This document shows positions 12,017 through 12,296 of a DNA stretch of 64,000 nt, one piece after another. The stretch lies in sequence record OP172796.1; one strand, written 5' to 3'. Under the pieces are notes generated by a model, which searched no databases, had not been told where the DNA came from, and worked only from the letters and a program-made list of their open reading frames with translations. The number at the start of each line of letters is the position of its first letter. Within the stretch, counting starts at the first letter, position 1. The DNA comes from Escherichia phage EF202P1. The translations under genes and the position numbers were made by a program.

Positions 12017-12155
12017 TTACAGAAGACCGTTTACAGCAAAACTTAAACAATCTATTTCTCCGGTAAAGAAAAGGCGAAGGTTCGATTCCTTCACTCGGCA
12101 GATGTCGAGTTGGTGTAATGGTAGCACTTAAGATGATAAACAACGGTCTGGTAAT
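12017..12155 (+). ncRNA. structured element D with embedded permuted tRNA-like domain; candidate Y-RNA-like/YrlA-like tRNA mimic
   Basis: Outer helix TTAC/GTAA, internal loop AGA vs G, inner helix AGACCGTT/AACGGTCT; inside: T-arm GAAGG-TTCGATT-CCTTC (12076-12092), acceptor-like helix ACTCGGC/GTCGAGT closed by AGAT loop (12093-12110), D-arm GTGTAATGGTAGCAC (12113-12127). Confidence 0.55.
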
Positions 12156-12296
12156 TATCTTTGTAGATAAGTTATTAAGCTTACCTGTGAGTATGCGACC
12201 ACAAAGGGTGAAAGGGTAAATTCTAGATTTAAACCCAACAAGACACATCGCTACAGACCTTAAGCAAGTCTGGGTAGCTTATCTACAAAGATAATT
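12153..12296 (+). repeat. perfect 19-bp inverted repeat (AATTATCTTTGTAGATAAG) enclosing 106 nt
   Basis: Arms at 12153-12171 and 12278-12296 are exact reverse complements; interior holds a small hairpin CAGACC-TTAAGCAA-GTCTGG. Confidence 0.6.

Follow-up and report, generated by a model that had tools for sequence, protein, structure and literature searches.

Bacterial and phage Y RNAs such as Salmonella YrlA and YrlB, Deinococcus Yrn1, and Yrl1 and Yrl2 of the Thermus phage phiLo are encoded next to, and on the same strand as, a gene for a protein with the Ro60 fold. These RNAs measure about 100–150 nucleotides (nt), carry a long terminal stem that closes an internal or multi-branch loop, and occur as several paralogues per genome, one of them a tRNA mimic. 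Ro60 proteins with Y-like RNAs are already known from phages, namely mycobacteriophages (2014) and phiLo (2025); in phiLo, Ro60 binds a pair of Y-like RNAs that the phage encodes next to it, and it forms a complex with host PNPase (PMC12135203). Here we describe a 144-nt unit, termed element E, at positions 12153–12296 (+ strand) of a 64,000-nt stretch of Escherichia phage EF202P1 (OP172796.1), which is referred to below as the window. The window is that of a Felixounavirus (FelixO1-like, E. coli/Salmonella) and is 94–99% identical to many GenBank phages. We propose, with a probability of about 0.55, that the unit is a lineage-specific Y-RNA-like noncoding RNA (ncRNA) and the partner of a Ro60-like protein.

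The locus resembles the described systems in that a gene for a Ro60-fold protein lies nearby on the same strand, the unit falls within the Y RNA size range, its ends form a long covarying stem of 22–24 base pairs (bp) around a multi-branch interior, and further related RNAs are present, one of which, element D, is a tRNA mimic. It differs from them in several respects. The closing stem of the unit is a perfect duplex of 19–24 bp and not a bulged helix, and it encloses a four-way junction. The proposed partner belongs to a DUF2828/DUF7788 branch and not to Pfam TROVE, the RNA signature is a helix followed by UUNCAGCAA or AAGCAA, and the RNAs lie inside a tRNA operon.

The 144-nt unit and its fold

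The unit is located inside a large + strand array of 25 tRNAs (found with ARAGORN), in the 458-nt spacer between tRNA-Asp, which ends at 11842, and tRNA-Lys(UUU) (12301–12376, + strand), which starts 4 nt downstream of it. An earlier note on this DNA had described a perfect 19-bp inverted repeat around 106 nt that hold a CAGACC/GTCTGG hairpin, with the left arm overlapping the closing helix of element D, and direct reading of the sequence bears out each of these points. The arms, AATTATCTTTGTAGATAAG (12153–12171) and CTTATCTACAAAGATAATT (12278–12296), are exact reverse complements, the 106 nt between them are 12172–12277, and the inner hairpin consists of CAGACC (12254–12259), TTAAGCAA and GTCTGG (12268–12273). 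The GUAA that forms the 3′ strand of the outer helix of element D occupies 12151–12154, so that D and the unit share 2 nt. Among perfect inverted repeats with separated arms this one is the longest in the window, and by our own arithmetic about 1e-4 perfect 19-mer inverted repeats within 300 nt are expected by chance per window. The arms reach 22 nt at 95% in a repeat search and 24 bp in RNA folding when G·U pairs are counted. Folded with RNAfold, the 144-nt unit has an energy of −45.1 kcal/mol compared to −25.7 ± 4.0 kcal/mol for 200 dinucleotide shuffles (z = −4.8), none of which equalled it.

Of the 251 related phage records in which the spacer is found, 249 contain the unit, in every case immediately 5′ of tRNA-Lys(UUU), and the length of the tRNA-Asp–tRNA-Lys spacer is steady at 430–458 nt across Felixounavirus, Suspvirus and Mooglevirus. 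It exists in distinct sequence versions. Version 1, that of the window and of FelixO1, accounts for 189 records and version 2 for 60, and BLAST fails to align the two through the interior. A third version is carried by the metagenomic relative L032, which shares 63% identity with the window in the upstream protein; this version is 71% identical to version 1 and occupies the same position. A probable fourth version lies just 5′ of tRNA-Lys(UUU) in L033, whose upstream protein is 56% identical. This L033 candidate scores a marginal 17.5 bits with our covariance model of the unit, R1, and BLAST found no match for it among GenBank phages. Under the matches in the 249 records the annotation shows no RNA anywhere, only "none" or a spurious open reading frame (ORF).

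The unit folds into a four-way junction of helices P1–P4, as supported by the fold, the covariance model R1 and the relatives. Version 2 by itself (11 distinct sequences folded) resolves the junction, and the fold of version 1 has the same plan. In the window, P1 pairs 12153–12176 with 12273–12296; its pairs are perfect across the two 19-nt arms and reach 24 bp with G·U. The P2 hairpin of the minimum free energy fold (12181–12211) has a loop containing GAGUAUGCG, the predicted P3 hairpin (12214–12236) reads GGGUAAAUU-CUA-GAUUUAAACCC, and the P4 hairpin (12254–12272) is formed by CAGAC-CUUAAGCAA-GUCUG. In version 2, P1 comprises 22 bp, the P2 stem of 5 bp carries the loop CCAUGAGUGCC, P3 consists of 7, 3 and 5 bp capped by CUA, with three covarying positions (AU/GC/GU, UG/UA/CG and CG/UA), and P4 has 6 bp and the loop CUUUAGCAA. 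In L025, G·U substitutions fall within the P3 stem. Several loop motifs are shared: a P2 loop with GAGU recurs in all four versions, the P4 loop CUUWAGCAA is conserved in all four, and UUCUAGAUU in P3 is invariant in versions 1 and 2, with ACUAGU in L032, leaving a conserved CUAG loop. A T arm and a D arm, the marks of a YrlA-type tRNA mimic, are absent from the unit; the neighbouring element D has them.

Pair statistics were obtained from 13 distinct sequences covering versions 1 and 2 and L032. RNAalifold returned a 22-bp terminal stem and a 5-bp inner hairpin, and 99.7% of the alignment cells pair in this structure compared to 31–43% when the 3′ partner is slid by one to three columns. Two-sided changes occur in 10 pairs, against 0–1 after sliding, and the observed values are reached by none of 500 shuffles. 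In P1 all 22 aligned pairs are kept, with two-sided changes in eight and one-sided changes (as G·U) in five; examples are UUUGUAG/CUACAAA versus UUUGCAG/CUGCAAA and AUCUUUG/CAAAGAU versus AUUCUUG/CAAGAAU. The inner hairpin, P4, changes in the same manner (CAGAC/GUCUG, CAAAC/GUUUG and CAGUC/GACUG), with a G-C pair becoming A-U and an A-U pair becoming U-A. Six P1 positions are G·U in some or most sequences. Since these would read C·A on the other strand, what is constrained is the + strand RNA, transcribed in the same direction as the tRNAs. Consistent with this, the window copy receives 152.6 bits from R1 on the + strand and 50.6 bits on the − strand, and L032 receives 112 bits. The unit is thus, as judged from its sequence and that of its relatives, very probably a structured + strand RNA.

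The earlier note had read the perfect stem, in what it took for an otherwise diverged region, as a sign of recent acquisition or of strong constraint. Constraint is what the comparison supports, with the arms paired and compensatory substitutions preserving the stem across three sequence versions. The region itself is not diverged, the spacer being 95–99% identical among most Felixounaviruses, and a single copy at one and the same site in all but two of the relatives, with no empty site, lends recent acquisition no support.

A Ro60-like neighbour and a shared RNA module

The presumed partner is encoded at 9596–11011 on the + strand, 1.14 kb upstream of the unit, and is a protein of 471 amino acids (aa) with DUF2828 and DUF7788/vWA domains (Pfam). 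Sequence comparison, by phmmer and by profile against the sequences of the PDB, reached Ro60 at E ~0.9 only, so that homology had to rest on the fold. An AlphaFold (AF2) model of the protein has a pLDDT (predicted local distance difference test) of 85, and its top 11 Foldseek matches are all Ro60/TROVE proteins that align with the model over its full length, with E values of 4e-8 to 1e-6 and a probability of 1.0. They include the phiLo phage Ro60 (9kop, 9l5y), Xenopus Ro60 (2i91, 1yvp), Deinococcus Rsr (2nvo) and human Ro60; the template modelling (TM) score relative to the query is 0.5–0.63 for all of them except Rsr, for which it is 0.36. The family to which the protein belongs has more than 2,800 homologues, mostly in phages. 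A DUF5681 ORF (9143–9514) lies directly upstream of the gene, as it does in the divergent L032 and L033, which suggests that the two genes form a conserved pair.

Four further + strand RNAs precede the unit, and they share a module consisting of a 4-bp outer helix, an AGA/G internal loop and the helix AGACCR/YGGUCU, followed by UUNCAGCAA. Element A (11344–11422), directly 3′ of tRNA-Glu, is a short Y-like RNA with UGAC/GUCA, AGACCAA and UUACAGCAA, and element B (11511–11576), directly 3′ of tRNA-Met, is another with UUGC/GCAA, AGACCG and UAUUCAGCAA. The third short Y-like RNA, element C (11927–12009), a member of repeat family D3, has a GAGC/GCUC outer helix, an AGA bulge, an AGACCAA helix and AUUCAGCAA. 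Element D (12017–12154) is a YrlA-type tRNA mimic in which the outer helix UUAC/GUAA, the AGA bulge and a AGACCGUU helix are followed by UUUACAGCAA. Its T arm spans 12076–12092, its acceptor-like hairpin 12093–12110 and its D arm 12112–12128, the same arrangement as in the published layout of YrlA (PMC4201824). Rfam gives a partial tRNA match at 12043–12093 of element D and, at permissive thresholds, no family for elements A–C. The outer helices vary between paralogues yet always pair, and the acceptor-like hairpin of D covaries among relatives (ACUCGGC/GUCGAGU, ACACG/CGUGU and ACCCUUC/GAAGGGU). A by-eye idea that elements A–D are ribozyme-like, of the hepatitis delta virus (HDV)-like, hammerhead or hairpin type, was dropped, as neither core motifs nor an Rfam match was present.

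The module is linked to the protein in distant phages as well. A MAFFT alignment of the tRNA mimics was too poorly structured for a covariance model, and we instead scanned 75 distant loci (L041–L115), with strand and shuffle controls, using a descriptor made of one strand of a 6-bp helix, UNCAGCA and the return strand 15–175 nt further on. Within 700 nt of the gene and on its own strand this gave 74 matches (0.70/kb) in 46 of the 75 loci, compared to nine on the opposite strand (0.085/kb) and 0.07–0.10/kb elsewhere. Matches that contain a T loop numbered 35 on the + strand, four on the − strand and two in shuffled sequence. The module appears both in short hairpins of about 50 nt, which no Rfam family covers, and in tRNA mimics of the YrlA-like kind, and the loops contain repeats of AAGCAA; two of the distant RNAs give full-length, sub-threshold matches to Rfam YrlA (38.9 and 28.7 bits). 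AAGCAA is found 16 times inside the distant-locus RNAs against 2.6 ± 1.6 expected, and CGAA shows no enrichment in them (20 against 19.7). At one locus with 41% protein identity (L076), two tRNA mimics directly follow the gene, and their terminal helices, UGGCUCU/AGAGCCA and UGGUUGG/CCAACCA, are each succeeded by UU(G/U)CAGCA(A); L033 and L041 show a like pattern.

Two parts of the unit can be compared with this module. The P4 loop CUUAAGCAA exposes AAGCAA on the strand of the nearby DUF2828 gene, which is how the other members of the family are placed. Because AAGCAA is enriched in the family RNAs, we take the hairpin CAGAC-CUUAAGCAA-GUCUG to be a minimal copy of the helix + AGCAA module. The other part is the left arm. 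The terminal stem of the L033 homologue bears a canonical module, GAAUCU-UUCAGCA...AGAUUC, and its canonical CUUUCAGCA can be aligned with the left arm of the unit (CUUUGUAGAUA in the window, CUUUGCAGUA in version 2). P1 thus resembles a descendant of the module that has been lengthened and is paired throughout.

We propose that the unit would be the fifth and most derived member of a Y-RNA-like cluster downstream of the DUF2828/vWA gene. It would be co-transcribed with the tRNAs from two predicted σ70-like + strand promoters (11031–11059 and 11122–11151) at the head of the tRNA/ncRNA operon; no + strand terminator is predicted between these promoters and the unit. Release may involve an RNase P cut at the 5′ end of tRNA-Lys, which we infer would set the 3′ end of the unit, together with cleavage between D and the unit, whose ends the long stem would protect. 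The ring-shaped Ro60-like protein would bind the helix + AGCAA module, exposed as P4, with the degenerate copy buried in P1. By analogy with the Rsr–Y RNA–PNPase and phiLo Ro60–Yrl–PNPase assemblies, the unit might then act as a scaffold or regulator that uses its GAGU and CUAG loops to link the protein with a further factor or a substrate. Transcription, processing, binding by the Ro60-like protein and function are all, in this scheme, what we infer from structure, position and neighbours.

Alternative readings of the unit

Several observations weigh against a partnership with the Ro60-like protein. The canonical Ro60 motifs GGUCCGA, GNCGAAN0-1G and CGAA are absent from the unit, and in Rfam it falls below Y_RNA and YrlA, with no match at E ≤ 10 (searched over 11335–12305) or E ≤ 1 (10500–17000); a search of Rfam had been suggested by the earlier note, and the unit, its interior included, matches no family at all even at E ≤ 10. 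In the window, the module copy in the left arm of the unit is degenerate and wholly paired in P1. R1 found no further match in the window, in the 75 distant loci or in 100 of 142 pattern-derived loci (L116–L215), and the unit is restricted to Ounavirinae-type phages. The protein occurs in thousands of phages, so the unit is not a general partner of the protein. Versions 1 and 2 are swapped independently of the protein gene, the homology of L033 is marginal, and the covariation stems from just three to four independent lineages.

These same facts, namely a lineage-specific unit beside a widespread protein, no canonical Ro60 motif and an exchange of versions with the protein gene unchanged, favour a structured ncRNA of the tRNA operon that is independent of the Ro60-like protein, acting through its loops as a decoy or regulator of a host factor or RNA, with the module likeness due to ancestry only. 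The evidence on structure and conservation fits this equally. The unit would then be comparable to species 1 and species 2 (RNA C and D) of the phage T4 tRNA cluster, small stable non-tRNA RNAs that are co-transcribed and co-processed with tRNAs; that cluster is not known to us to contain a Ro60-like gene. We nevertheless consider independence from the protein unlikely: the unit abuts four module-bearing RNAs 1.1 kb from the Ro60-like gene, its P4 loop carries the family-enriched AAGCAA, and the closing stem of the L033 homologue is a canonical module. In another reading the stem serves above all for processing by RNase III, which would part the Y-like RNAs from the tRNAs further down, and the 106-nt interior is a by-product. 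About two helical turns of duplex are adequate for RNase III, and the 19 Watson–Crick pairs, or 24 with G·U, of the stem come to about this length; the stem also lies between RNA genes of a polycistron, and other long hairpins stand just 5′ of tRNAs at 12740–12782 and 13714–13805. RNase III hairpins such as the R sites of T7 are likewise long duplexes between genes of a polycistronic RNA, but they are short stem-loops, usually with internal loops, whereas the stem here encloses 96–106 nt of RNA that is conserved and folds on its own, its helices covarying and its loops invariant across versions, unlike mere spacer. RNase P alone, moreover, can free tRNA-Lys. The suggestion in the earlier note of a processing signal holds only in part: a 19–24 bp duplex could be an RNase III substrate, but the stem does more than offer a place to cut, as it closes a structured RNA. 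We regard a site of this kind as the whole explanation as quite improbable; RNase III trimming of the stem is possible as a maturation step of a Y-RNA-like partner.

The earlier note had also raised an intron-like or mobile insert and the target of a DNA-binding protein, and neither gains support. Perfect terminal inverted repeats around a core of about 100 nt are shared with miniature inverted-repeat transposable element (MITE)-like elements, and two alternative interiors are found in near-identical flanks: SPJ41 and JLBYU32 have flanks near-identical to those of the window, yet carry version 2. In both, the switch points lie within the outer part of the arms, which indicates that a cassette was swapped by homologous recombination, by way of the outer stem and flanks that the versions share, and was not inserted. 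A MITE-like element is further opposed by the finding of the unit once only in the window and nowhere else in the searched loci, by zero empty sites among the 251 relatives, by the lack of an evident target-site duplication at the flanks, and by a fixed orthologous site with pairing at the RNA level. No Rfam intron matches, and the flanking tRNA-Lys and element D are intact. For a DNA palindrome, whether bound by a protein or extruded as a cruciform, the perfect repeats would suit, but the stem tolerates G·U pairs that exist only in the + strand transcript and would be C·A on the other strand. An insert or a palindrome thus seems very improbable to us. Treating the stem as a genome-wide DNA motif was likewise rejected, since TCTTTNNAG is enriched everywhere and the enrichment of CTTTAAAG is not significant. 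The excess of TCTTTNNAG (68 in the whole window against about 19.5 expected from dinucleotide shuffles, mostly in coding regions) reflects the composition or codon usage of the genome and does not mark a specific site. A scan of IMG/VR and JGI metagenomes with the pattern TCCTTAAGCAAGANNGG yielded the 142 loci mentioned above; the covariance model identified no unit in the 100 that were run (L116–L215), and we set these matches aside as due to chance. Finally, the region might encode an 85-aa protein on the − strand (11991–12248), an ORF that is present in the window and is called a hypothetical protein in a few related GenBank records. In relatives, frameshifts and replacement cut the open stretch from 95 aa to 44–61 aa, the ORF reads the antisense of the T arm (EGIEPSP), and half of it is replaced in version 2. 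A protein here is barely credible, and the ORF, which overlaps element D and the unit, is likely a mis-annotation.

The tRNA array and wider implications

Other parts of the array hold additional features. At 11870–11925, in the interval from tRNA-Asp to element C, there are two hairpins that are conserved (GAGGGCUAUUUAGCCCCUC and CCUUAAAGAGUUCUUACGAGUAUUCUUUAAAGG), and the 27-nt segment before them (11843–11869) is present in some relatives and absent from others. Downstream of the unit, a stretch of about 250 nt (12535–12782) runs from tRNA-Ile to the next tRNA and contains a strong promoter-like sequence, TTGACA-17-TATAGT, at 12550–12578. It gives weak Rfam matches to transfer-messenger RNA (tmRNA) and permuted tmRNA (15–30 bits), ARAGORN finds no tmRNA there, and it terminates in a hairpin, CAUCUUUAAGGGC...GUCUUUAAAGAUAAU, that resembles the stem of the unit; the stretch may be a further unannotated structured RNA. 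The tRNA that follows (12783–12866) was found by Rfam (31.7 bits) and missed by ARAGORN. Its anticodon loop CUUCUAA reads UCU (Arg), it has an odd D region and an insertion, and relatives are annotated with tRNA-Arg(TCT) at this position. Just past it lies a homing-endonuclease-type ORF (about 12880–13226; HNH in relatives) whose presence varies among relatives, and BLAST coverage ends at 12866–12869 in many of them. Insertions of 350–530 nt are seen elsewhere in the array in other relatives, for example between elements B and C in L037 and L040. tRNA-Leu, which starts at 13806, is immediately preceded by a second long hairpin (13714–13805) with 27-nt arms that are 85% complementary and a 38-nt loop. 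The stem of this hairpin, on the theme UCUUUUUAGAG/CUCUAAAAAGA, is similar to the outer stem of the unit, and Rfam returns only a weak microRNA-precursor match.

On a wider scale, DUF2828/vWA proteins could constitute a large unrecognised branch of Ro60 with an RNA family of its own, defined by a terminal, often bulged, helix + UUNCAGCAA, often with AAGCAA, and not of the CGAA type; hairpins of about 50 nt and YrlA-like mimics of tRNA would accompany the gene in the majority of phages that have it. The Ounavirinae would then possess a battery of five such RNAs built into the tRNA operon, with the unit as a derived four-way-junction class. We advance this tentatively, at somewhat under even odds. 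In the literature searched, the 2014 supplementary lists aside, DUF2828 as a Ro60-like protein with an RNA signature, the five-RNA battery and the four-way-junction RNA appear to be undescribed. If such a branch exists, it would imply a phage ribonucleoprotein (RNP) whose targets in the infected cell are tRNA or RNA metabolism or the exoribonucleases of the host.

The identification of the unit is of practical use in that it corrects the spurious hypothetical-protein calls over this region. FelixO1-type phages, of which hundreds of genomes have been sequenced, are classics of phage typing and therapy. Should the proposed partnership hold, they carry a Ro60-like RNP system with five dedicated small RNAs interleaved with tRNA genes, and the helix + UUNCAGCAA would provide a simple signature for finding partner RNAs. 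The phage Ro60–Y RNA biology described for phiLo in 2025 would then take in phages of enterobacteria as well as a much larger protein family, with over 2,800 homologues, and the role of a Ro60/Y RNP in infection would become testable by E. coli and Salmonella genetics.
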